Below, piece after piece: positions 7,811 to 58,052 of a stretch of 64,000 bases of DNA. The DNA comes from an uncultured Methanosarcinales archaeon. GTDB taxonomy: Archaea > Nanobdellota > Nanobdellia > Woesearchaeales > JACPBV01. The number at the start of each line of letters is the position of its first letter. Position 1 is the stretch's first letter. The notes below the pieces were generated by a model. That model saw only the letters and a program-made list of their open reading frames with translations. It made no database searches and was not told where the DNA came from. The position numbers and the translations under genes are program-made. The DNA is taken from the NCBI GenBank assembly GCA_964577685.1, contig CAZNZT010000008.1:761-64760 (forward strand), written 5' to 3'.

Positions 7811-7893
7811 GCGTCGGTGGTCTAATGGATATATTACCATAAATGACAACGGCCTTCCAAGCCGTTTATCCGGGTTCAAGTCCCGGCCGACGC
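7811..7893 (+). tRNA. tRNA-Gly (anticodon UCC) carrying a roughly 12-nt insertion in the D-arm region
   Basis: Acceptor GCGTCGG/CCGACGC with discriminator A. Anticodon arm ACGGC-CTTCCAA-GCCGT. T-arm CCGGG-TTCAAGT-CCCGG. The D region is 30 nt where about 18 is expected. Confidence 0.7.
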
Positions 7894-7897
7894 ATTT

Positions 7898-19509: not shown

Positions 19510-19655
19510 TGGGGACGCCGGAATTTGAATCCGGGACACCTAGATCTCCATTCTTCATTGGCCCAAAGCCTCAACAGATCATAGGAACTTCAGTCTAGCG
19601 CTCTCCCAGGCTGAGCTACGTTTATGGTTTTGGAACAATCAATTCCAAAATCCCC
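19510..19655 (-). tRNA. tRNA-Phe (GAA) with two introns: a 30-nt intron in the acceptor stem (after nt 5) and a 42-nt canonical 37/38 intron
   Basis: Minus-strand exons: GGGGA|CG TA GCTC AGCCTGGGA GAGC G CTAGA CTGAAG|A TCTAG GTGTC CCGGA TTCAAAT TCCGG CGTCCCC A. Inserts lie at plus 19621-19650 and 19546-19587. Confidence 0.75.
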
Positions 19656-19799: not shown

Positions 19800-22190
19800 A
19801 TGGAAAAAAACAAAAGATTTATTCTTTGGTTTAATGAAATAGGTATTAATGACGTGCCTCTAGTGGGGGGCAAAAACGCTTCTTTAGGTGAAATGTATAG
19901 AAACTTAACAAAAAAAGGAGTAAATATCCCAAACGGATTTGCTATAACCTCATACGCATATAACTATTTCCTAGAAGAAGCTGGAATAAAAGAAAGACTA
20001 AGAAAAATATTGTCAAACATCCACATAAAAAGTGTTAAAAGCCTAGCTAAGTGGGGTGAAGAAGCAAGGCAACTAATCATAAACTCTGAATTTCCCCCAG
20101 TCCTAAAAGCTTCAATAACAGACGCCTATAAAAAGCTATGTAGAATATATGGAAGAAATACAGATGTAGCCGTAAGGAGTTCTGCTACAGCAGAAGACCT
20201 ACCTGATGCAAGTTTTGCAGGACAACAAGAAACATACCTAAACATAAGGGGAGAAGGAGCATTAATTGACGCTTGTAAGAAATGTTTTGCTTCACTTTTC
20301 ACAAATAGAGCGATTCACTATAGAATTGATAAGGGGTTTGACCATTTCAAGGTAGCCTTATCTATTGGTATTCAAAAAATGGTAAGAAGTGACTTAGCAT
20401 GTTCTGGGGTAATGTTTTCTATTGACACAGAAACAGGATTCAGGGATGTGGTCTTAATTAACGGTATTTATGGTCTAGGTGAAAATATCGTCCAGGGTAG
20501 AGTAAATCCAGATGAGTTCTATGTATTCAAACCTACTCTAAGAAAAGGATTCAAACCAATACTAAGTAAAGTAATAGGTGACAAAAAAATCAAAATGATT
20601 TATACCCCAGAGGGTGCTAAAAGTTCTGTAAAAAATATTGAAACAACCGAAAAAGAACAAAAAAAATTTGTTCTGGAAGATAAGGAAATATTAAAACTAG
20701 CTAAATGGGCTTGCATTATTGAGGAGTATTATAAGAGACCAATGGATATGGAATGGGCAAAAGATGGCAAATCAAAAAAATTATTCATTGTGCAAGCAAG
20801 ACCAGAAACAGTACAAAGCCAGAAAGATAGAACAATCCTAGAAGAGTATATCCTAAAAAAGAGAGGTAAGATTCTTTGTGTTGGAAGAAGCATAGGTTCA
20901 AAAATAGGACAAGGTAAAGCACAGATAATTGAGAATATACAAGAAATAGATAAATTTGATAAAGGAAATATACTAGTTACAGATATTACAGATCCAGATT
21001 GGGAACCTATAATGAAAATTGCTTCAGCAATAGTAACAAATAAAGGAGGCAGAACATGCCATGCTGCCATAGTCTCTAGAGAACTTGGAATTCCTTGTGT
21101 GGTAGGAACAAATAATGCCACTTCTATTATAAAAAACGGTCAAAAAATAACAGTAAGCTGTGCTGAGGGCGAAGAAGGATTCATTTATGATGGAATACTG
21201 CCATACCAAATAAAGAAGCACAACCTAAGGAATCTTAAGAGGCCAAGAACAAAAATAATGATGAATATAGGGAATCCAGAACAGGCGTTTGAATTAAGTT
21301 TTATACCCAATGACGGAGTTGGACTAGCAAGGGAAGAGTTCATAATCAATGAATACATAAAAATCCATCCTAAAGCACTAATCAATTTTGATAAAATTAA
21401 GAATGAAAATATAAAAAAAGAGATAGAAAAGCTGACATACGGATATAAAGACAAAAAGAAATTCTTTATAGATAAACTAGCCCAAGGAGTTGCGATGATT
21501 GCTGCGGCTTTCTATCCAAAAGATGTTATAGTAAGGCTTAGTGACTTTAAAAGCAATGAATATGCAAACCTAATAGGGGGGAACCTTTTTGAGCCAAAAG
21601 AAAGTAATCCAATGATTGGCTGGAGAGGAGCATCAAGATATTATTCTGAAGAGTATAAAGATGCTTTTGCACTGGAATGCCTAGCTATGAAAAAGGTCAG
21701 AGAAGAAATGGGTTTAACAAATGTAAAGCTTATGATACCCTTTTGCAGAACAATAGAGGAAGGAAAAAAAGTTCTAAAGGAGATGGAAAAAAATGGACTA
21801 AAAAGAGGAGTAAATCAGTTAGAGGTATATGTCATGTGTGAGATTCCATCTAATGTAATACTAGCAGATGAGTTCTGTGATATCTTTGATGGATTCTCCA
21901 TTGGAACTAATGACCTAACACAACTTACACTTGGACTAGACAGAGATTCTGAGTTAGTGAGTCATGTTTATGATGAAAGAAATGACGCCGTTAAGAGTCT
22001 CGTTTATAGTGTAATAAAAAAAGCAAAATCAAACAAGAAAAAAATAGGCATATGTGGTGAAGCTGCATCAATACCAGAATTTACTAGATTCTTAATAGAG
22101 TGCGGGATAGATTCAGTTTCTGTTGCTCCAGACTCTGTTATCAAGACAACATTAGTAGTACTGGAAGAAGAAGAAAAACTAAAAAAATAG
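19800..22190 (+). CDS. ppsA: Phosphoenolpyruvate synthase (pyruvate, water dikinase)
   Basis: 796 aa. Mobile phosphohistidine domain 'GGRTCHAAIVSRELGIPCVVG'. PEP-utilising TIM barrel at the C-terminus. The N-terminal ATP-grasp is typical of PpsA. Confidence 0.9.
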   Translation: MEKNKRFILWFNEIGINDVPLVGGKNASLGEMYRNLTKKGVNIPNGFAITSYAYNYFLEEAGIKERLRKILSNIHIKSVKSLAKWGEEARQLIINSEFPPVLKASITDAYKKLCRIYGRNTDVAVRSSATAEDLPDASFAGQQETYLNIRGEGALIDACKKCFASLFTNRAIHYRIDKGFDHFKVALSIGIQKMVRSDLACSGVMFSIDTETGFRDVVLINGIYGLGENIVQGRVNPDEFYVFKPTLRKGFKPILSKVIGDKKIKMIYTPEGAKSSVKNIETTEKEQKKFVLEDKEILKLAKWACIIEEYYKRPMDMEWAKDGKSKKLFIVQARPETVQSQKDRTILEEYILKKRGKILCVGRSIGSKIGQGKAQIIENIQEIDKFDKGNILVTDITDPDWEPIMKIASAIVTNKGGRTCHAAIVSRELGIPCVVGTNNATSIIKNGQKITVSCAEGEEGFIYDGILPYQIKKHNLRNLKRPRTKIMMNIGNPEQAFELSFIPNDGVGLAREEFIINEYIKIHPKALINFDKIKNENIKKEIEKLTYGYKDKKKFFIDKLAQGVAMIAAAFYPKDVIVRLSDFKSNEYANLIGGNLFEPKESNPMIGWRGASRYYSEEYKDAFALECLAMKKVREEMGLTNVKLMIPFCRTIEEGKKVLKEMEKNGLKRGVNQLEVYVMCEIPSNVILADEFCDIFDGFSIGTNDLTQLTLGLDRDSELVSHVYDERNDAVKSLVYSVIKKAKSNKKKIGICGEAASIPEFTRFLIECGIDSVSVAPDSVIKTTLVVLEEEEKLKK

Positions 22191-23234
22191 CTAAGACAAA
22201 ACAAGAATCTTTCTTGTCAAACTTTTATGAACAAATTGTGAAAATTCTTTTTTTATATTAAAACCAGCTTTTTTTACTAATTCCCTATATTTAACATAAT
22301 GAGGAAATAAAACTACTGCCCTCTTGCCTAAGATCCTTCTCAAATTTCTTAGGAATCTAAAATAAAAATTTTCTAGATTTTTTATTTTTTCATTTTTACC
22401 ATCTTGCTTCAAAGATATTTTTTTGTTTCTTCCATCCTCGCTAACCCAAATTGATGTATTCAATCCATATGGTAAATCAGTTACAACAAAATCATATCTT
22501 TTTTTTATACTGAGCGCATCTCCGTTAAATAGTCTATAATCCCTTATACCAAAAAAGTCAAGATTCACTCTCGCTCTTCTTAACATCTCATCATACAAGT
22601 CATAACCAACAGGCCTTAATCCCATCAAACCAGCTTCAATAAGAATTCCCCCGGCACCACAAAATGGGTCCATAACCTCGCCCCTAGCACCGCACAGATT
22701 AATCAAAGCTCTTGCTAATCTTGGGTCTAAGGCAGTTGGATGTTGTTCTGGTCTTTTATGTGCCCTTCTAGATTCAAAATCATGTTTTATCTCCATAATA
22801 AGTCTTGTAACATAAATCCTTTTATTCGTTGAAAAAAACTCAATTAATGTTTCTGGGTCCTTAAGATTAACCTTGGGTGTACTGAGTTGATTCCATATAA
22901 GCTCCCCAAGCTTACTCTCGCTTATTCTTTTCATAGATTTCTCCAATCTATAGAACCTCACACAAAAATTTTTTTTGTAAATGGGTTCCCAATCAAAATT
23001 TTTTATATCAGAGAACAAATCACCAAAAGTTGTTTCAAACAAAAGCCGATATATTCTCTTTGTATAAGATAATCTATTGGCTTCATCTATATTATCTGTC
23101 TCTAAGAACAACAAGTTATTAATCAACCTATACCTTGTTACATCTAACAAGGACAAAACCTCTTCTTTAGATAAATCCAGATTTTCCTTTGACAACAAAA
23201 ACACATATACCATACAGACAAAAATAAAAGACAA
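22191..23234 (-). CDS. THUMP-domain tRNA (guanine-N2)-methyltransferase (Trm11/Trm14 family)
   Basis: SAM-MTase motif I 'DPFCGAGGILIEAG' and motif IV 'VVTDLPYG'. N-terminal THUMP-like region. The true start may be the internal Met 'MVYVFLLSKEN'. Confidence 0.75.
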   Translation of the reverse strand: MSFIFVCMVYVFLLSKENLDLSKEEVLSLLDVTRYRLINNLLFLETDNIDEANRLSYTKRIYRLLFETTFGDLFSDIKNFDWEPIYKKNFCVRFYRLEKSMKRISESKLGELIWNQLSTPKVNLKDPETLIEFFSTNKRIYVTRLIMEIKHDFESRRAHKRPEQHPTALDPRLARALINLCGARGEVMDPFCGAGGILIEAGLMGLRPVGYDLYDEMLRRARVNLDFFGIRDYRLFNGDALSIKKRYDFVVTDLPYGLNTSIWVSEDGRNKKISLKQDGKNEKIKNLENFYFRFLRNLRRILGKRAVVLFPHYVKYRELVKKAGFNIKKEFSQFVHKSLTRKILVLS

Positions 23235-28745: not shown

Positions 28746-29093
28746 ATGAGTAAATTTGCTACACTTAATTTAAACAAAAAGACTACTAAAAAAGTCAAAA
28801 TGCCAACAATACAAGTAGTAGGCAAAGAAAAAATAGAAAAGGAAAAGATTGAGAGAGTAATAAGCAATCACTACAAAAGAATCAACAAGAAGATAAAGAA
28901 CATAATATCTCTAAAGGTACATGTTAAAGTCCACTCTAAAGGTGGAAAAAGAAAAAAATGGGATTTTAGGGTTAAGCTAACAACTACAAAAGGAAACTTT
29001 GAAGCTCAAGAGAGTGATTGGAATCTAACAAAAGCCTTACACAAAGTATTCACAAATATTGAAAAAGAAGTAAAGCATAAACTAAAAGAATAA
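28746..29093 (+). CDS. Ribosome hibernation factor-like protein (RaiA/HPF/YfiA, sigma-54 modulation protein family). The probable true start is the internal Met at 28800.
   Basis: From 'MPTIQVVGKEKIEKEKIERVISNHYKRINKKIKNIISLKVHVKV...EAQESDWNLTKALHKVFTNIEKEVKHKLK' the pattern lines up with E. coli HPF/RaiA: I.I.G..VE...., V.L.V.K, A....D...AID.L.DKL..QL.KHK.K. Confidence 0.45.
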   Translation: MSKFATLNLNKKTTKKVKMPTIQVVGKEKIEKEKIERVISNHYKRINKKIKNIISLKVHVKVHSKGGKRKKWDFRVKLTTTKGNFEAQESDWNLTKALHKVFTNIEKEVKHKLKE

Positions 29094-29143
29094 AAAACCA
29101 ACAAAGAATTCTAATGCTAAAAAGTAAAACATAGATAGCATAA

Positions 29144-29256
29144 TAGCGGAGGATGGATTTGAACCATCGACCTATGGGTCTCTGAGGCAATTTCCGAGCC
29201 TTATGAGCCCATCGGGCATACAGGCCTTAATGGTCTCCTGGCTGCCCCACTCCGCT
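29144..29256 (-). tRNA. tRNA-Met (CAU), initiator-like (A1:U72, GGG/CCC anticodon stem), with two introns: about 17 nt in the D-loop and 22 nt at the canonical 37/38 site
   Basis: Minus strand: AGCGGAG TG GGGC [AGCCAGG..insert..TAT] GCCC G ATGGG CTCATA|AGGCTCGGAAATTGCCTCAGAG|A CCCAT AGGTC GATGG TTCAAAT CCATC CTCCGCT A. Confidence 0.7.
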
Positions 29257-29370
29257 ATTAACAAAGACAGAAAAGAATTATTATTTATAAAACTATTGGA
29301 AATAGCCATATAAAATCTTAACGAAAAGTTTTAAATAGTCACAAAAAATTCTAAACAAGTATGCAAGTAT

Positions 29371-29518
29371 GCCGCGGTGGCACAACATAGAGTGGTGCTT
29401 CCATTTTATGTGCAATCTGGTACTGCGCGAGATTGCTAAGCACAACTAAGTGCTTATGATTCCTCCGCAGATATCTCGTGTCCGAAAGGACTTCTGGGTT
29501 CAAATCCCAGCCGCGGCG
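29371..29518 (+). tRNA. tRNA-Ser (GCU), 148 nt: a 34-nt canonical intron plus a roughly 28-nt insertion in the D-arm region. Long variable arm.
   Basis: GCCGCGG ... CGAGA TTGCTA|AGCACAACTAAGTGCTTATGATTCCTCCGCAGAT|A TCTCG TGTCCGAAAGGACTT CTGGG TTCAAAT CCCAG CCGCGGC G. Two D-arm-like hairpins (GCAC..GTGC and GCA ATCTGGTAC TGC) show that extra sequence was inserted 5' of the anticodon stem. Confidence 0.65.
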
Positions 29519-29580: not shown

Positions 29581-31554
29581 ATGAAAAAATTTTTAATATT
29601 ATTATTCTTATTAATAATTCCTGTTATTTCTGCACAGGATTGGATTTATAACTCTGAGTCTTTAACAGTAGAGTTAGATATTTCTTCTTCTTTAAGACTG
29701 ATCCAAAAAAGCCCTGACTTTAGAGTAGAATATATCTCAGTAAATCTATCGCTTGTACCACAAGATTCATCCCAGCAAGAAGTTTTAGTGCTAAAAACAA
29801 ATCCTAAAGGAGAAAAAAAAGAAGGTGTAATAGAATTCAAATGGGATAAACCAGAAAAAGAATTACTTGAATTTAAAGTTAATTCTAGAATAATAAGCCT
29901 TAACGATATAATAAAACTAAAAGAAAAAATAAAATTCCCACTAACGGAAATACCAAAAGAAATAAAAAAATACACGCAGCCCTCTAAGACTATAGACTCA
30001 AACAATGAAAACATAATAAGGCTTGCTTCAAAATTAATAGAAGGAGAAGATGATTTATATTTTGTTGTCTTTAAATTAGCAGAATGGACTAAGGAAAATA
30101 TAAGATATGACCTCACAACCTCAACAGGACAAACAACACAAAAAGCATCCTGGGTTCTAGATAACAAAGAGGGAGTATGTGATGAACTGACAAATCTATT
30201 CATAGCCTTATGTAGAGCCCTTGGCATTCCTGCAAGATTTATTTCTGGAGTTTCATATACTAATGTTGAAAGTTCAAAAGAAGGCTGGGGACCACATGGT
30301 TGGGCTGAAGTCTATTTTCCAAAATATGGATGGGTCCCTTTTGATGTAACATATGGGCAATTTGGTTTTGTTGATGCTACGCATATAAAACTAAAAGAAA
30401 GTATGGACCCGGACGAACCATCTACAAGACTACAATGGTTTGGTTCAGACATAGAAGTAGAAATGTCAAAGTTAGAGATAAAAACAAAATTAATAGAAAA
30501 AAAGGGTAAAACACTAAAACCAATCTCTATAGAAGGAAAAGCAATCAGAAATAATATAGATTTTGGTTCTTATAATATCATAGAAGCAAAAGTAAAAAAC
30601 CTAAATGACTATTACATAAGTACAGATTTAACCATATCTAAACCAAAAGAAATAGAAGTGATAGACAAAGAAATAAAAACAATCGTATTAGAACCAAATG
30701 AAGAAAAAAAAATTTATTGGATTATAAAGGTAAATGAAAACTTAGAGGAGGAATATATCTATACATTTCCTATTATGATATACTCAACAAGAAATGTTAG
30801 TTCTATCACAAGATTTGACGCAAGAAAAGGTGAAAAAAAATTAGATTTAAAGTATATAGAAGAGATACTAGAAGAAGAAAAAGAAGAAAAAAACATCTCT
30901 AAAAACATAAAATTGGACTGTCAAACAAAAGAAAAAGAAATATATGAATATCAAACATCAAAAATAAAGTGTGAAATAGAAAACACAGGCAATACTTATA
31001 TAGAAAAATTAAATGTTTGCTTAGAAGAAGATTGCAAAGAAGTAGATTTAGGAATCACACAAAAGAAAGATTTAAACTTTAATTTCTCTCCAAAAAAAAT
31101 AGGAAAACAAGAAATAAAAATAACGGCAAAAAACAAAGACCTTATCAGATCTTCTAGTTTAGATATGACTGTATATGATACCCCTTCATTAGAGATTAGA
31201 AATATTACTTTCCCAAAGAAAGTAGCCTATAAAGGAGAATACAAAATATCCTTCATATTAAAAAAGAAATCTCAATACCCACCCTACAATATCACAATAA
31301 AACTTAGTCCATTTCTTAGTGAATGGAAACTTAGTCAGTTAAATGTTGATAGGCTCTTTAATATAAACTTCTATGGGAAAGAATTAGATATTGGAGAGAA
31401 CAAATTTATCTTAACAATAAACTATCAAGACAAAAATGGAAGGAAATATACTACAAACAAAAAGTTCATAATATCTCTTTCAGATGTAAATATAATGGAG
31501 AGGATTATCATATACTTAAAAAAGATTTTAAAGAAAACTTCAAAACTACTCTAG
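29581..31554 (+). CDS. Secreted transglutaminase-like cysteine protease domain protein with a C-terminal beta-rich (Ig-like?) extension
   Basis: Signal peptide 'MKKFLILLFLLIIPVISAQ'. Transglutaminase core 'GVCDELTNLFIALCRALGIPARFISG', 'HGWAEVYF', 'PFDVTYG' (Cys-His-Asp triad). Confidence 0.75.
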   Translation: MKKFLILLFLLIIPVISAQDWIYNSESLTVELDISSSLRLIQKSPDFRVEYISVNLSLVPQDSSQQEVLVLKTNPKGEKKEGVIEFKWDKPEKELLEFKVNSRIISLNDIIKLKEKIKFPLTEIPKEIKKYTQPSKTIDSNNENIIRLASKLIEGEDDLYFVVFKLAEWTKENIRYDLTTSTGQTTQKASWVLDNKEGVCDELTNLFIALCRALGIPARFISGVSYTNVESSKEGWGPHGWAEVYFPKYGWVPFDVTYGQFGFVDATHIKLKESMDPDEPSTRLQWFGSDIEVEMSKLEIKTKLIEKKGKTLKPISIEGKAIRNNIDFGSYNIIEAKVKNLNDYYISTDLTISKPKEIEVIDKEIKTIVLEPNEEKKIYWIIKVNENLEEEYIYTFPIMIYSTRNVSSITRFDARKGEKKLDLKYIEEILEEEKEEKNISKNIKLDCQTKEKEIYEYQTSKIKCEIENTGNTYIEKLNVCLEEDCKEVDLGITQKKDLNFNFSPKKIGKQEIKITAKNKDLIRSSSLDMTVYDTPSLEIRNITFPKKVAYKGEYKISFILKKKSQYPPYNITIKLSPFLSEWKLSQLNVDRLFNINFYGKELDIGENKFILTINYQDKNGRKYTTNKKFIISLSDVNIMERIIIYLKKILKKTSKLL

Positions 31555-34363: not shown

Positions 34364-34486
34364 TGGGGCTACTCGGATATTCAGTCGCTAACTTTGATTA
34401 ACGACATTTGAACCGAGGTCGTCCGCTTTTTTTTAGACAACTCTAACCCAAAGCGGAAAGGATATTCCAAGCTACCCCATAGCCCC
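34364..34486 (-). tRNA. tRNA-Pro (UGG) with two introns: 19 nt at the canonical 37/38 site and 29 nt inside the T-arm (between T-loop and 3' T-stem, about position 60/61)
   Basis: Minus strand: GGGGCTA TG GGGT AGCTTGGAATA TCC TT TCCGC TTTGGG|TTAGAGTTGTCTAAAAAAA|A GCGGA CGAC CTCGG TTCAAAT|GTCGTTAATCAAAGTTAGCGACTGAATAT|CCGAG TAGCCCC A. Confidence 0.7.
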
Positions 34487-42807: not shown

Positions 42808-43509
42808 ATGATAAGCGTTATCCTAATAGAACCAGAAAATCCAGGAAACATAGGGGCTATTGCAAGAGTAATGAAAAATTTTAATTTTAAGGATTTAATT
42901 CTAATCAATCCAAAATGCAATCATTTATCAAAAGAAGCACAGGATAGAGCAACACATGCAAAAAAAATACTAAAAAAAGCAAAAACAAAACCAATCTCTT
43001 ACCTAAGAGGCTTTGATTATATAATCGCCACAACAGCAAAACTAGGAACTGACTTCAATATAGCAAGGCAGCCTATAAGCCCAAAAGACTTAGCACGAAA
43101 GCTAGAAAAAATAAACAAAAACATGAAAATAGGCCTAATGTTTGGCAGAGAAGGAACAGGCTTAAGAAACAAAGAAATTTTAATGTCAGATTTTGTTGTT
43201 ACAATCAACACATCCAAAGAATATCCAACCATGAATATAAGTCATGCAGTAGCTATTGTGTTATATGAAATATTTCAAATATCAAAACAAAAGAAGATAA
43301 ATCAGCATATTCTTTTTGCAAAGAAAAAAGAGAAAGAGAACATATTAAAACTTCTAAATGAGATATTAAATAGGCTTAATTTTAAAACAGAATCAAAAAA
43401 GAAAACCCAGGTATTAGTCTGGAAAAGAGTCTTAAATAAAGCATTCCTAACGAAAAGAGAAGCATATGCCATATTCGGGTTCCTGAGAAAGTTGGAAAAG
43501 TTTAAATAA
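42808..43509 (+). CDS. SPOUT-class RNA 2'-O-methyltransferase (TrmJ/TrmH-like)
   Basis: 'ISVILIEPENPGNIGAIARVMKNFNF' N-terminus like TrmJ. Knot region 'GLMFGREGTGLRN' and 'NISHAVAIVLYEI'. Confidence 0.7.
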   Translation: MISVILIEPENPGNIGAIARVMKNFNFKDLILINPKCNHLSKEAQDRATHAKKILKKAKTKPISYLRGFDYIIATTAKLGTDFNIARQPISPKDLARKLEKINKNMKIGLMFGREGTGLRNKEILMSDFVVTINTSKEYPTMNISHAVAIVLYEIFQISKQKKINQHILFAKKKEKENILKLLNEILNRLNFKTESKKKTQVLVWKRVLNKAFLTKREAYAIFGFLRKLEKFK

Positions 43510-44121: not shown

Positions 44122-44901
44122 CTAAAAAGAAGCTCTATTTTTTTTATAAAAAACAAAAAAAGAAATAGAAAAAACAAAGATACTAACAATCTGTGATGCT
44201 GTCAAAAAACCAAACAGATACCAATTATACGACCTAAAAAACTCTATCGCAAACCTTGTAGCAGAGTAATACATTAAAACAAATAATGTCAAAAAACCAT
44301 CGTATCTCTTTTTTTTGTCCAACCACCTTAATATAAAAAATAAAACAAGTAAATTAGCTATAATATATAATCTAGCAGGATGAAGTGGCTCAGTGATAAT
44401 CTTGGTGTTAGAATATCTAACAATAGCCCATGGTAGGTTTGTTGGTTTGCCTCTACAACTATCATTCGATACAAAACAACCTAGCCGAGCAATAGACAAT
44501 ATAATAGGAAAATATAAAGCAAAAACATCAGAATATTTCCAAAAATTTATTTTTTTGAACTTACAATAAGAATAAATAGAAAGTACAGCACCCAAAAGCC
44601 CACCATAAAGAACAAGACCAGAACGCCAAAACATAAAGAACTTAATTATCCTCTGAAAAAATGTATAGCTTCTATTCCATGTCCAAGGACCAAAATAATA
44701 AAAAAGCCTTGCACCAGCTATGATACCAACTATTGAAAATAAAATAAGATAAAACATATCTCTCTTGTTAAGTTTTCTCTTTTTCGCTTCATGAAATACA
44801 AGAAAAATCCCTACTAGAGTAGCAAGATAAGCAAATGTTCTATACACCTCTATCCTAAAAAAAATAAAATCAAATCTTTTTAATTGTGGAAAATAGAACA
44901 T
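44122..44901 (-). CDS. lgt: Prolipoprotein diacylglyceryl transferase (bacterial-type Lgt)
   Basis: Lgt blocks: 'GARLFYYFGP' (G.R.GY..), 'FWRSGLVLYGGLLGAV' (W.GG...HGGLIG), signature 'ARLGCFVSNDSCRGKPTNLPWAI' (GR.G(N/C)F.N.E..G.PT.LPW), and C-terminal 'HPARLYIIANLLVLFFILRWL...GFLTLFVLMYYSATRFAIEFFR', which aligns closely with E. coli Lgt '[22 protein letters not shown]...GLFLIGYGAFRIIVEFFR'. Confidence 0.8.
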   Translation of the reverse strand: MFYFPQLKRFDFIFFRIEVYRTFAYLATLVGIFLVFHEAKKRKLNKRDMFYLILFSIVGIIAGARLFYYFGPWTWNRSYTFFQRIIKFFMFWRSGLVLYGGLLGAVLSIYSYCKFKKINFWKYSDVFALYFPIILSIARLGCFVSNDSCRGKPTNLPWAIVRYSNTKIITEPLHPARLYIIANLLVLFFILRWLDKKKRYDGFLTLFVLMYYSATRFAIEFFRSYNWYLFGFLTASQIVSIFVFSISFFVFYKKNRASF

Positions 44902-49398: not shown

Positions 49399-49601
49399 CC
49401 CCCTAGACTATTTGATTTTTTATTAAAAATTTTCTATTAGAGGTAATCATACTCCATTTATAAATATTGCTCTTACTTAAATCTCTCAAGGACATCTTCA
49501 CCCGCCATTCCTTTCCTAACACCTAGCTCTTTTGCTCCTGTTGGCTTTTGTTGAAACACCACAAAAACAAATCCCCCTAACAATCACTTTTTCTACTTTT
49601 A

Positions 49602-52469: not shown

Positions 52470-52471
52470 TT

Positions 52472-52744
52472 TTAACCAAACTTATAATATTTTTTTACGG
52501 GCTTATTAATTTTCCATTTACATTTTAAGCCTCTAGGGAAAACAACTAAATCTCCTTTTCCAAACTTCACATGCTCGCCATCCTCTGTTATTACTTCAAC
52601 ATCTCCCTCAATTAGTAAACAAGTTTCCTTCTCATCGTACTCCCACGGAAACTCTGAAATCCCTTTCTCCCATATACCCCATGATTTTGCTTCTTCTTTT
52701 TCTTTTTCAGTTGGTTTTCTTACTTCTATCCTCACCAAAATCAC
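52472..52744 (-). CDS. Small cupin-fold protein embedded in the leu/ilv operon
   Basis: 90 aa. '[31 protein letters not shown]' is a cupin beta-barrel motif pair. Translationally coupled on both sides. Confidence 0.5.
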
Positions 52745-56801: not shown

Positions 56802-58052
56802 ATGCAAGAGATACTGGAAAAAGTTCTAAAAAAAATAAAACCAACAAAAGAAGAGGAACTAAAGATAAATAAAAAAATAGAAGGCCTCATAAAAAAAATA
56901 AACAAAAACCTAAAAGATGCCAAAGCAATCCTAGGGGGGTCTGGTATCAAGGGAACATGGCTAAAAAATGCCTATGACTCAGATATATTTGTAAAATTTA
57001 ACTACAAGAAATATAAGAACAGAAGCAATGAGTTATCTGATATACTAGAGAAAATTCTCAAAAAAAGAAGAATAAAATTCACAAGACTGCATGGTTCCAG
57101 AGATTATTTCCAGATTAAAGAAAAAAATTTTACATTCGAAATAGTACCCATACTAGATATTAAAAAAGTAGAAGAAGCAAAGAATATTACTGATGTAAGT
57201 CCACTACACGCAGATTGGGTGAACAAAAAAGTAAAAGGCCTCAAAGACGATGTAAGGCTATTAAAACAATTCTGCAAAGCAATAAATGTATATGGTGCAG
57301 AGAGTTATATAAAAGGGTTCTCAGGTTATGTCTGTGAAATATTAACAGCATACTACAAAGGATTTACAAATGTAATTAAAAATGCATCAAAATGGAAAGA
57401 AAAAACGATAATAGATACCGAAGGATACTGGAAAGGGAAAAACATCTTATCCGAACTTAATAAATCCAAAACAAGATCACCAATAATAATAATAGACCCT
57501 GTCCAACCAGATAGAAACGCTGCTGCTGCTGTAAGCCGAGAGAATTTCATTAAGTTTATAGAAAGATGTAGGGAATTCCTAAAAAACCCTTCAGAAGAAT
57601 TCTTTGAAATTAAGAAAATAAATAAAAAAACCTTAGAAGAGAAGTCAGGAAAAAACCACCTGATAATAATAGAAGCAAAAACAAAAGAGGGCAAAAAAGA
57701 CATCGTTGGTTGTAAATTAATAAAAGTAATAGAATTCATCAAGAAAGAATTAAAAAAACATGAATTCAATATACTAGATTATGGGTGGGAATGGAATAGA
57801 AAAGTTTTATTTTACTTTATCATTAAAAATGAAAAAAAGCCAGATACAATAAAAATAACAGGACCACCAATAAAAGAGAAATTTCATACCAAAAACTTCA
57901 AAAAAAAGCATAGAAATACATTCATAGAAAAAGGGAGAATATACGCCAAAGTAAAAAGAAAATTCAAGGAACCACATAGCCTAATCAGATTCTTATTAAA
58001 AAGTGAATATATAAAGGATAAAGTTAGCTCAATAAGGATAAAAAATGAATGA
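56802..58052 (+). CDS. cca: Archaeal class I CCA-adding enzyme (tRNA nucleotidyltransferase)
   Basis: 'AILGGSGIKGTWLKNAYDSDIFVKF' (pol-beta NT motif GS...D.D) plus a long C-terminal tRNA-binding region. Confidence 0.8.
   Translation: MQEILEKVLKKIKPTKEEELKINKKIEGLIKKINKNLKDAKAILGGSGIKGTWLKNAYDSDIFVKFNYKKYKNRSNELSDILEKILKKRRIKFTRLHGSRDYFQIKEKNFTFEIVPILDIKKVEEAKNITDVSPLHADWVNKKVKGLKDDVRLLKQFCKAINVYGAESYIKGFSGYVCEILTAYYKGFTNVIKNASKWKEKTIIDTEGYWKGKNILSELNKSKTRSPIIIIDPVQPDRNAAAAVSRENFIKFIERCREFLKNPSEEFFEIKKINKKTLEEKSGKNHLIIIEAKTKEGKKDIVGCKLIKVIEFIKKELKKHEFNILDYGWEWNRKVLFYFIIKNEKKPDTIKITGPPIKEKFHTKNFKKKHRNTFIEKGRIYAKVKRKFKEPHSLIRFLLKSEYIKDKVSSIRIKNE

Follow-up and report, generated by a model that had tools for sequence, protein, structure and literature searches.

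Archaeal tRNA genes with several introns are well established, and bulge-helix-bulge (BHB) introns are known at positions 3/4, 20/21, 29/30, 53/54 and 59/60 (PMC4090602; PMC4033280; PMC8450103). The archaeal splicing endonuclease recognises a 4-bp central helix set between two 3-nt bulges, each of which is cut behind its second nucleotide, and archaeal tRNA introns are 11-129 nt long with medians of 12-25 nt (PMC4090602). Multiple-intron tRNA genes were described in Thermoproteales by Sugahara et al. (2007/2008, as reviewed in PMC4033280, PMC4090602 and PMC8450103). The published maximum is three introns per tRNA gene (PMC4033280; PMC8450103), and no later report of more than three was found in the literature searched. 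The published record for intron density is 71 introns in 46 tRNA genes (PMC8450103).

Disrupted tRNA genes also occur in DPANN archaea. ARMAN-2 combines them with an epsilon2 EndA (PMC3239211). According to the main text of Kaneta et al., which gives proportions per genome and covers one Woesearchaeota and one Pacearchaeota genome, DPANN lineages carry an alpha4 EndA with an L3 loop that is associated with increased tRNA gene disruption, and DPANN tRNA sets are incomplete since disrupted genes were missed (PMC5829648). The initiator tRNA itself is split in Nanoarchaeum equitans (PMC4090602) and permuted in Thermofilum pendens (Chan et al. 2011, cited in PMC4090602).

Here we describe an initiator tRNA-Met (tRNAi) gene in a 64-kb window, the whole stretch of DNA that was analysed, from a Woesearchaeota-type DPANN archaeon. 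We consider it a functional archaeal tRNAi gene with two protein-spliced BHB introns, with a probability of about 0.88. No published account of this gene or of its D-loop intron was found in the literature searched.

The initiator tRNA gene and its uninterrupted homologs

The tRNAi gene occupies positions 29144-29256 of the minus strand and is read as a 113-nt precursor from 29256 to 29144; the plus strand of this interval is the reverse complement of the tRNA-like sequence. A1 lies at 29256, U72 at 29145 and the discriminator A73 at 29144. Positions 1-73 are encoded and CCA is not. The locus is intergenic: a 115-aa ORF ends at 29093 on one side, and a 657-aa ORF starts at 29581 on the other. 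Its segments read AGCGGAG TG GGGC AGCCAGGAG [ACCATTAAGGCCTGTA] T GCCC G ATGGG CTCATA [AGGCTCGGAAATTGCCTCAGAG] A CCCAT AGGTC GATGG TTCAAAT CCATC CTCCGCT A, where the bracketed blocks ACCATTAAGGCCTGTA (D-loop) and AGGCTCGGAAATTGCCTCAGAG (37/38) are the inserts to be removed. The features of the locus are:

29144..29256, minus strand: complete initiator tRNA-Met gene, 113 nt, positions 1-73, spliced to a 75-nt tRNA-Met(CAT)
29235..29256, minus strand: exon 1, 22 nt, acceptor 5' strand, U8 G9, D-stem 5' strand and D-loop A14-G20a (AGCCAGGAG)
29219..29234, minus strand: D-loop intron, 16 nt, ACCAUUAAGGCCUGUA, between nucleotides 20a and 21, placed by empty-site homologs and BHB register
29202..29218, minus strand: exon 2, 17 nt, U21, D-stem 3' strand, G26, anticodon stem 5' strand and C32-A37 with the CAU anticodon
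29180..29201, minus strand: 37/38 intron, 22 nt, AGGCUCGGAAAUUGCCUCAGAG, at the canonical position, top match of the blind BHB scan
29144..29179, minus strand: exon 3, 36 nt, A38, anticodon stem 3' strand, variable loop AGGUC, T-arm, acceptor 3' strand and A73
29284..29291, minus strand: putative archaeal promoter, TATA-like box TTTATAAA, 28-35 nt upstream of A1
29119..29129, minus strand: putative transcription stop, two T-runs (T4, T5), 15-25 nt downstream of A73
29371..29518, plus strand: divergent neighbour tRNA-Ser(GCU), introns at 29387-29414 (28 nt, D-loop) and 29439-29472 (34 nt, 37/38)

Removal of 16 and 22 nt from the 113-nt precursor leaves a 75-mer typed as tRNA-Met(CAT) by ARAGORN. 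Excision of both inserts thus restores a canonical tRNA whose D-arm is identical to that of intron-less homologs. Folded by MFE, all 113 nt form a cloverleaf in which the D and anticodon arms are lengthened (-48.4 kcal/mol, z = -3.55), and 1 of 200 dinucleotide shuffles was equally stable. The signal of the gene is far above chance. At least three independent metagenome assemblies (L051-L053) contain the identical gene sequence, so the gene is no assembly artefact.

By its sequence features the locus is an archaeal initiator tRNA-Met gene. The initial annotation had pointed to the A1:U72 pair and three G:C pairs in the anticodon stem; both were confirmed, as was the CAU anticodon. A1:U72 (29256 with 29145) is invariant in all ten family members and is the archaeal initiator hallmark, whereas elongators have G1:C72. 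Within the anticodon stem (AUGGG/CCCAU), the pairs G29-31:C39-41 are likewise invariant in 10/10. The anticodon sits in a CUCAUAA loop, with the junction of exons 2 and 3 at CUCAUA/A. Across ten spliced or intact family sequences, 99.5% of cells in the cloverleaf are paired, against 38-56% in slid controls. Compensatory changes on both sides are found at 9 of 21 pairs, a level reached by none of 500 shuffles.

The D-loop boundaries come from homologs with an empty site. When one genome per species was scanned for the 20-nt 5' exon, four loci came up, two of them uninterrupted: L003:566-640, from a Woesearchaeota MAG, and L004:6775-6849, from another archaeal MAG. Both are 75-nt tRNA-Met(CAT) genes by ARAGORN and lie above the Rfam gathering score (58.8 and 55.8 bits, respectively). 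Exon 1 of the window gene is identical to both at 22/22 nt, and the spliced 75-mer shares 64/75 nt with L003 and 67/75 with L004, within a range of 64-69/75 for the other members of the family as a whole. The D-arm of the two uninterrupted genes is GGGC-AGCCAGGAGT-GCCC and reads AGCCAGGAG/UGCCC across the D-loop junction (slash). The window D-arm becomes the same once exactly ACCATTAAGGCCTGTA (29219-29234) is removed, leaving a D-loop of AGCCAGGAGU. Shifting the 16-nt deletion by 1 nt either way alters the D-loop sequence. Since a single register restores the homolog D-arm, the insert is 16 nt long and lies between nucleotides 20a and 21; in the sequence comparison, the splice points are fixed to the nucleotide by the uninterrupted genes. 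A second excised insert in the D-loop, proposed earlier at about 17 nt, therefore stands with its length corrected to exactly 16 nt, and the 22-nt 37/38 intron proposed with it was found as described at 29180-29201.

A fold that keeps a standard D-arm without D-loop excision was sought, and one candidate emerged. ARAGORN -i reports a tRNA-Tyr(gta) at c[29143,29257] with intron (41,28). In this reading the locus is a tRNA-Tyr(GUA) whose variable region is long and whose one intron measures 28 nt. The D-stem of this fold has only three pairs, one of them a wobble; its anticodon stem has 4 bp, and its 16-nt variable region lacks a stem. The fold also places the perfectly conserved initiator module GGGCUCAUAACCC within the intron. 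Archaeal tRNA-Tyr has C1:G72, whereas A1:U72 is found here. The homologs keep the initiator exon blocks in the same order with inserts at other places, which contradicts the tyrosine assignment; together with the family covariation they effectively refute it, and we give it next to no weight. The initiator assignment is followed below.

Bulge-helix-bulge geometry and a proposed splicing route

The precursor was scanned blindly for BHB motifs with a 4-bp helix, 3-nt bulges and cuts after the second bulge nucleotide. Where H is the central, h' the inner and h the outer helix, the two introns have the following geometry:

37/38 intron, 22 nt: H 3/4 with a C34·C mismatch; 5' bulge U36 A37/A; 3' bulge A G/A38; h' 3 bp (GGC/GCC); h 5 bp (anticodon stem)
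D-loop intron, 16 nt: H 4/4 (C17 A17a G18 G19:CCUG); 5' bulge A20 G20a/A; 3' bulge U A/U21; h' 2 bp (CC/GG); h 2 bp (G15C16:G22C23)

Both lengths fall inside the known archaeal range. The scan independently recovers the D-loop intron at the boundaries defined by homologs and in strict register, both bulges being 3 nt. Alone, it yields many false positives and is little proof; its value lies in this agreement. Other D-loop registers from the scan were rejected, for example one in which 22 nt are excised and the D-loop shrinks to 4 nt, because they remove G18G19 and conflict with the homologs.

The segments CAGG and CCTG had been described as complementary and as flanking the D-loop insert. They are complementary, but they do not flank it. 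CAGG is exonic (C17 A17a G18 G19 of the mature D-loop) and CCTG is intronic (the 3' part of the insert), so the pair forms the central exon-intron helix of the BHB rather than flanking repeats.

Both motifs are relaxed rather than ideal, with short h and h' helices in the D-loop and an H mismatch at 37/38. The D-loop outer helix (G15C16:G22C23) is a competitor of the D-stem, and the MFE fold, in which A14 and U21 form a pair, puts the 3' splice site of the D-loop intron at the margin of a 2x2 internal loop with no clean 3-nt bulge. Imperfect motifs and a 3' site outside a clean bulge imply that an endonuclease of relaxed specificity is needed.

The insert at the tRNAi D-loop site was also sought in metagenomes, at lengths of 8-38 nt. 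Most of the 46 loci returned are chance matches in GC-rich bacterial DNA; new tRNAi genes are L016, L029, L031, L032 and L038. With L001 and the window gene, these five give seven distinct D-loop inserts of 15-22 nt at one site. All seven start with A and finish with CCU(G/C) plus 2 nt, in keeping with the BHB register, and their interiors differ. Between L001 and L016, the differences in the inner hairpin are limited to changes between G:U and G:C. Taking the tRNAi family together with the other tRNA genes of the window, all 33 inserts placed by homology have at least 3/4 H pairs, and 22 have 4/4. The empirical background is 15.9% (at least 3/4) and 2.3% (4/4), which corresponds to a binomial p of about 1e-27, a value to be read with the knowledge that some of these introns are homologous and not independent.

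The short 2-bp flanking helices and the missing 3' bulge in the MFE fold could instead mean that the 37/38 intron alone is spliced and that the 16-nt insert is retained, as a 26-nt D-loop or an extra mini-hairpin. A retained insert, however, would pair with G18G19, which are required for the interaction of D-loop and T-loop in tRNA architecture. Its seven counterparts keep the ends that a BHB requires while the rest varies freely, and related genes lack the insert altogether. Moreover, 20/21 is a documented archaeal intron position (PMC4090602). Retention is very unlikely on these grounds, and excision of both inserts is the reading developed here.

We infer transcription, cleavage, ligation, the enzymes and any order of intron removal from the sequence, and propose the following route. 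The gene would be transcribed from its own TATA-type promoter into a precursor of about 113 nt with a short leader and trailer. Both inserts would lengthen their arms into hairpins that expose the splice sites. In the D-arm, the intron CCUG would pair with exon C17-A17a-G18-G19 as a 4-bp central helix, masking G18G19, whose usual docking partner is the T-loop; in the anticodon arm, the 3' part of the intron would pair with residues 32-35. EndA, the tRNA splicing endonuclease, would then cut after the second nucleotide of each 3-nt bulge, and an RtcB-type ligase would join the three exons. Finally, the CCA-adding enzyme encoded in the window would add CCA, giving the 75-nt tRNAi. Neither EndA nor RtcB was found among the roughly 50 ORFs scanned in the 64-kb window. 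Genes for tRNA maturation in the window are:

56802-58052, plus strand: class I CCA-adding enzyme, in line with tRNA genes that all lack an encoded CCA
22191-23234, minus strand: THUMP/UPF0020 methyltransferase (Trm11/Trm14-like)
42808-43509, plus strand: SpoU-family methylase

Intron load in the window and among relatives

Interruption is the rule for tRNA genes in the 64-kb window. All five are interrupted, by nine introns in total or 1.8 per gene:

7811-7894, plus strand: tRNA-Gly(UCC), 12-nt intron at 20a/21 (7831-7842, ATATTACCATAA)
19510-19655, minus strand: tRNA-Phe(GAA), 30-nt intron at 4/5 (19622-19651, acceptor stem) and 42-nt intron at 37/38 (19546-19587)
29144-29256, minus strand: tRNAi, 16-nt intron at 20a/21 and 22-nt intron at 37/38
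29371-29518, plus strand: tRNA-Ser(GCU), 28-nt D-loop intron and 34-nt intron at 37/38
34364-34486, minus strand: tRNA-Pro(UGG), 19-nt intron at 37/38 (TTAGAGTTGTCTAAAAAAA) and 29-nt intron at 59/60

The neighbouring tRNA-Ser had been noted earlier as multiply interrupted, and its two introns bear this out; the spliced 86-mer is typed as tRNA-Ser(GCT). In tRNA-Gly the intron occupies the D-loop site of the tRNAi gene (20a/21), and its CCAU pairs with exon AUGG, which includes G18G19. The central BHB helix of the acceptor-stem intron in tRNA-Phe borrows two nucleotides of the 5' leader, which implies splicing before, or independent of, RNase P trimming. The T-loop intron of tRNA-Pro at 59/60 has H 4/4 and a 9-bp h', and the spliced 75-mer is typed as tRNA-Pro(tgg).

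Standard tools pass over most of these genes. At the tRNAi locus, neither default ARAGORN nor Rfam, at its gathering threshold or at E ≤ 10, reports a tRNA; the hits in the region were limited to chance snoRNA-like or mascRNA-like matches. Default ARAGORN finds one of the five genes and mis-types it, calling tRNA-Gly a tRNA-Tyr(ata). Rfam finds part of one, 19515-19621 of tRNA-Phe, and tRNA-Pro at 34364-34486 is reported by no tool. Two further places were considered as tRNA candidates. The intergenic candidate at 52470-52740 is a small protein-coding ORF, and examination of a GC-rich island at 49496-49545 gave no tRNA features. The island lies in a 203-nt gap upstream of the ketol-acid reductoisomerase gene and is possibly a leader or regulatory RNA.

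A gene that standard tools miss might be a decaying pseudogene or a non-functional duplicate, with the working tRNAi elsewhere in the genome; copies can be counted within about 65 kb only. Against this, all four stems are perfect and every initiator identity element is intact, a TATA-like box and a T-rich trailer are present, and elements like TTTATAAA or TTTAAAAA lie upstream of nearly all tRNAi homologs. The sequence is identical in three independent assemblies. The earlier description of the tRNA as single-copy holds within the 64-kb window, where no second tRNAi copy was found. With five of five tRNA genes interrupted in like manner, interruption is the norm here and not decay. A pseudogene is thus improbable, and we treat the locus as a working tRNAi gene.

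Some relatives are predicted to carry still more introns in their tRNAi genes. BHB introns number six in L029:758-974 (plus strand), five in L038:7309-7497 (plus strand) and four in L032:2813-2975 (minus strand). Those of L029 fall at 7/8, 20a/21, 29/30, 37/38, 43/44 and 53/54. Every insert in the three genes has at least 3/4 H pairs, and the spliced products are 75-nt tRNA-Met(CAT). In the introns common to L032 and L038, differences are confined to loops or to changes between G:U and G:C. The intron numbers predicted for L032, L038 and L029 exceed the published maximum of three per gene. If these introns are real and spliced, a 75-nt RNA would be built from seven exons, some as short as 5-8 nt, and the family would offer a natural series for the gain and loss of BHB introns.

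Several other features were seen in this family. In the initiator tRNAs of L004:6775-6849, L032 and L038, C33 (loop CCCAUAA) replaces the near-universal U33; C33 is typical of vertebrate cytoplasmic initiator tRNA. The acceptor stem of L038 has a U5·C68 mismatch. L001:3889-4016 (minus strand) lies on a contig labelled 'uncultured Methanosarcinales archaeon' with 58% GC. Its tRNAi has a 22-nt D-loop intron, at the same site as in the window gene, and a 31-nt intron at 59/60. It shares with the window the arrangement RNase HII, tRNAi, transglutaminase-like gene, at 41% and 28% protein identity. It looks as though either the taxonomic label of L001 is doubtful or the D-loop intron is old. A syntenic tRNAi was sought near the RNase HII homologs of close relatives and none was nearby; RNase HII adjoins SMC there. 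The RNase HII-tRNAi neighbourhood is common to the distant loci L001 and L004 only.

The tRNA-Pro(UGG) gene allows comparison between orthologs. Its synteny (prefoldin, L37ae, tRNA-Pro, aRF1, SprT) is kept in relatives with aRF1 identities of 77-80%. The window gene has introns at 37/38 and 59/60, and the orthologs differ in their sets:

L056:9785-9914, minus strand: introns at 3/4 and in the D-loop
L058:9806-9907, minus strand: intron at 3/4 only
L060:9741-9848, minus strand: intron at 59/60 only
L062:9735-9870, minus strand: introns at 3/4 and 59/60

These sets indicate rapid gain and loss of tRNA-Pro introns. We lean towards the view, with some reserve, that the window's Woesearchaeota-type lineage has what may be the most intron-dense tRNA genes known, with four to six predicted introns in the tRNAi of relatives and tRNA-Pro sets that vary at about 20% aRF1 divergence.

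Protein comparison identifies the host as a Woesearchaeota-type DPANN archaeon. The closest named homologs of its aRF1 (72-77% identity) all belong to Candidatus Woesearchaeota or Nanoarchaeota, and the window proteins include aRF1, aIF5A, prefoldin and Nre. In some Woesearchaeota-type homologs (P0087, P0103 and P0122, about 501 aa) an intein (PF14890) splits aRF1. The gene content of 38419-60872 is metabolically rich for a DPANN archaeon. The window encodes a glycine cleavage system (GcvT/H/P1/P2), PFOR subunits and a full branched-chain amino-acid cluster (ilvB/N, ilvC, ilvD, leuA, leuB and leuC/D), as well as a PEP synthase (19800-22190) and an Lgt-family prolipoprotein diacylglyceryl transferase (44122-44901), typically a bacterial enzyme.

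Relation to known disrupted tRNA genes

The heavy intron load, the relatives predicted to exceed three introns per gene and the fast turnover among orthologs bear on how BHB introns spread. The pattern also bears on whether such introns are under selection, for example by shielding tRNA genes from integrating elements, or build up neutrally under a relaxed endonuclease. In practical terms, DPANN tRNA sets appear incomplete, and this locus is a case of default tools missing interrupted genes. Missed tRNA genes matter for estimates of genome completeness and for claims on codon usage or tRNA loss in DPANN archaea.

The gene, the exact boundaries of its inserts, their BHB-compatible geometry, the covariation of the family and the presence or absence of inserts among homologs are shown by the sequence comparison and can be set beside known systems. 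[quoted passage not shown] The window archaeon differs in being DPANN rather than TACK, with a mesophile-like genome of 33% GC and presumably another endonuclease architecture. Its intron density (nine in five genes) is at or above the published record of 71 in 46, as a local value for the 64-kb window, and its relatives are predicted to go beyond the three introns that are the published maximum for one gene. Disrupted tRNA genes of other DPANN archaea belong to the same superphylum as the window; the published descriptions connect EndA variants that bear extra loops (L2/L3) with multiple and non-canonical introns (PMC3239211; PMC5829648). The window tRNAi is missed by default tools, as were the disrupted DPANN genes of the survey (PMC5829648).

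A eukaryotic nuclear tRNA gene likewise has introns in the D-arm and anticodon loop with BHB-dependent recognition; this gene and its enzyme represent a convergent or retained archaeal-like feature and no relative of the window tRNAi. Closer in kind are two disrupted initiators, the T. pendens gene and the split tRNAiMet of N. equitans, the latter reportedly described by Randau et al. in 2005. In both, an essential initiator tRNA exists in pieces that are joined via BHB-type processing, as predicted for the window gene. The pieces of the window tRNAi are contiguous and collinear (cis introns), whereas those of N. equitans are separate genes and those of T. pendens are in permuted order. Since multi-intron tRNAs, the 20/21 site, disruption in DPANN and disrupted initiators have all been published, the structure of the window tRNAi is of a known type. 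The gene is a well-resolved example of this class, its splice sites pinned by empty-site homologs.
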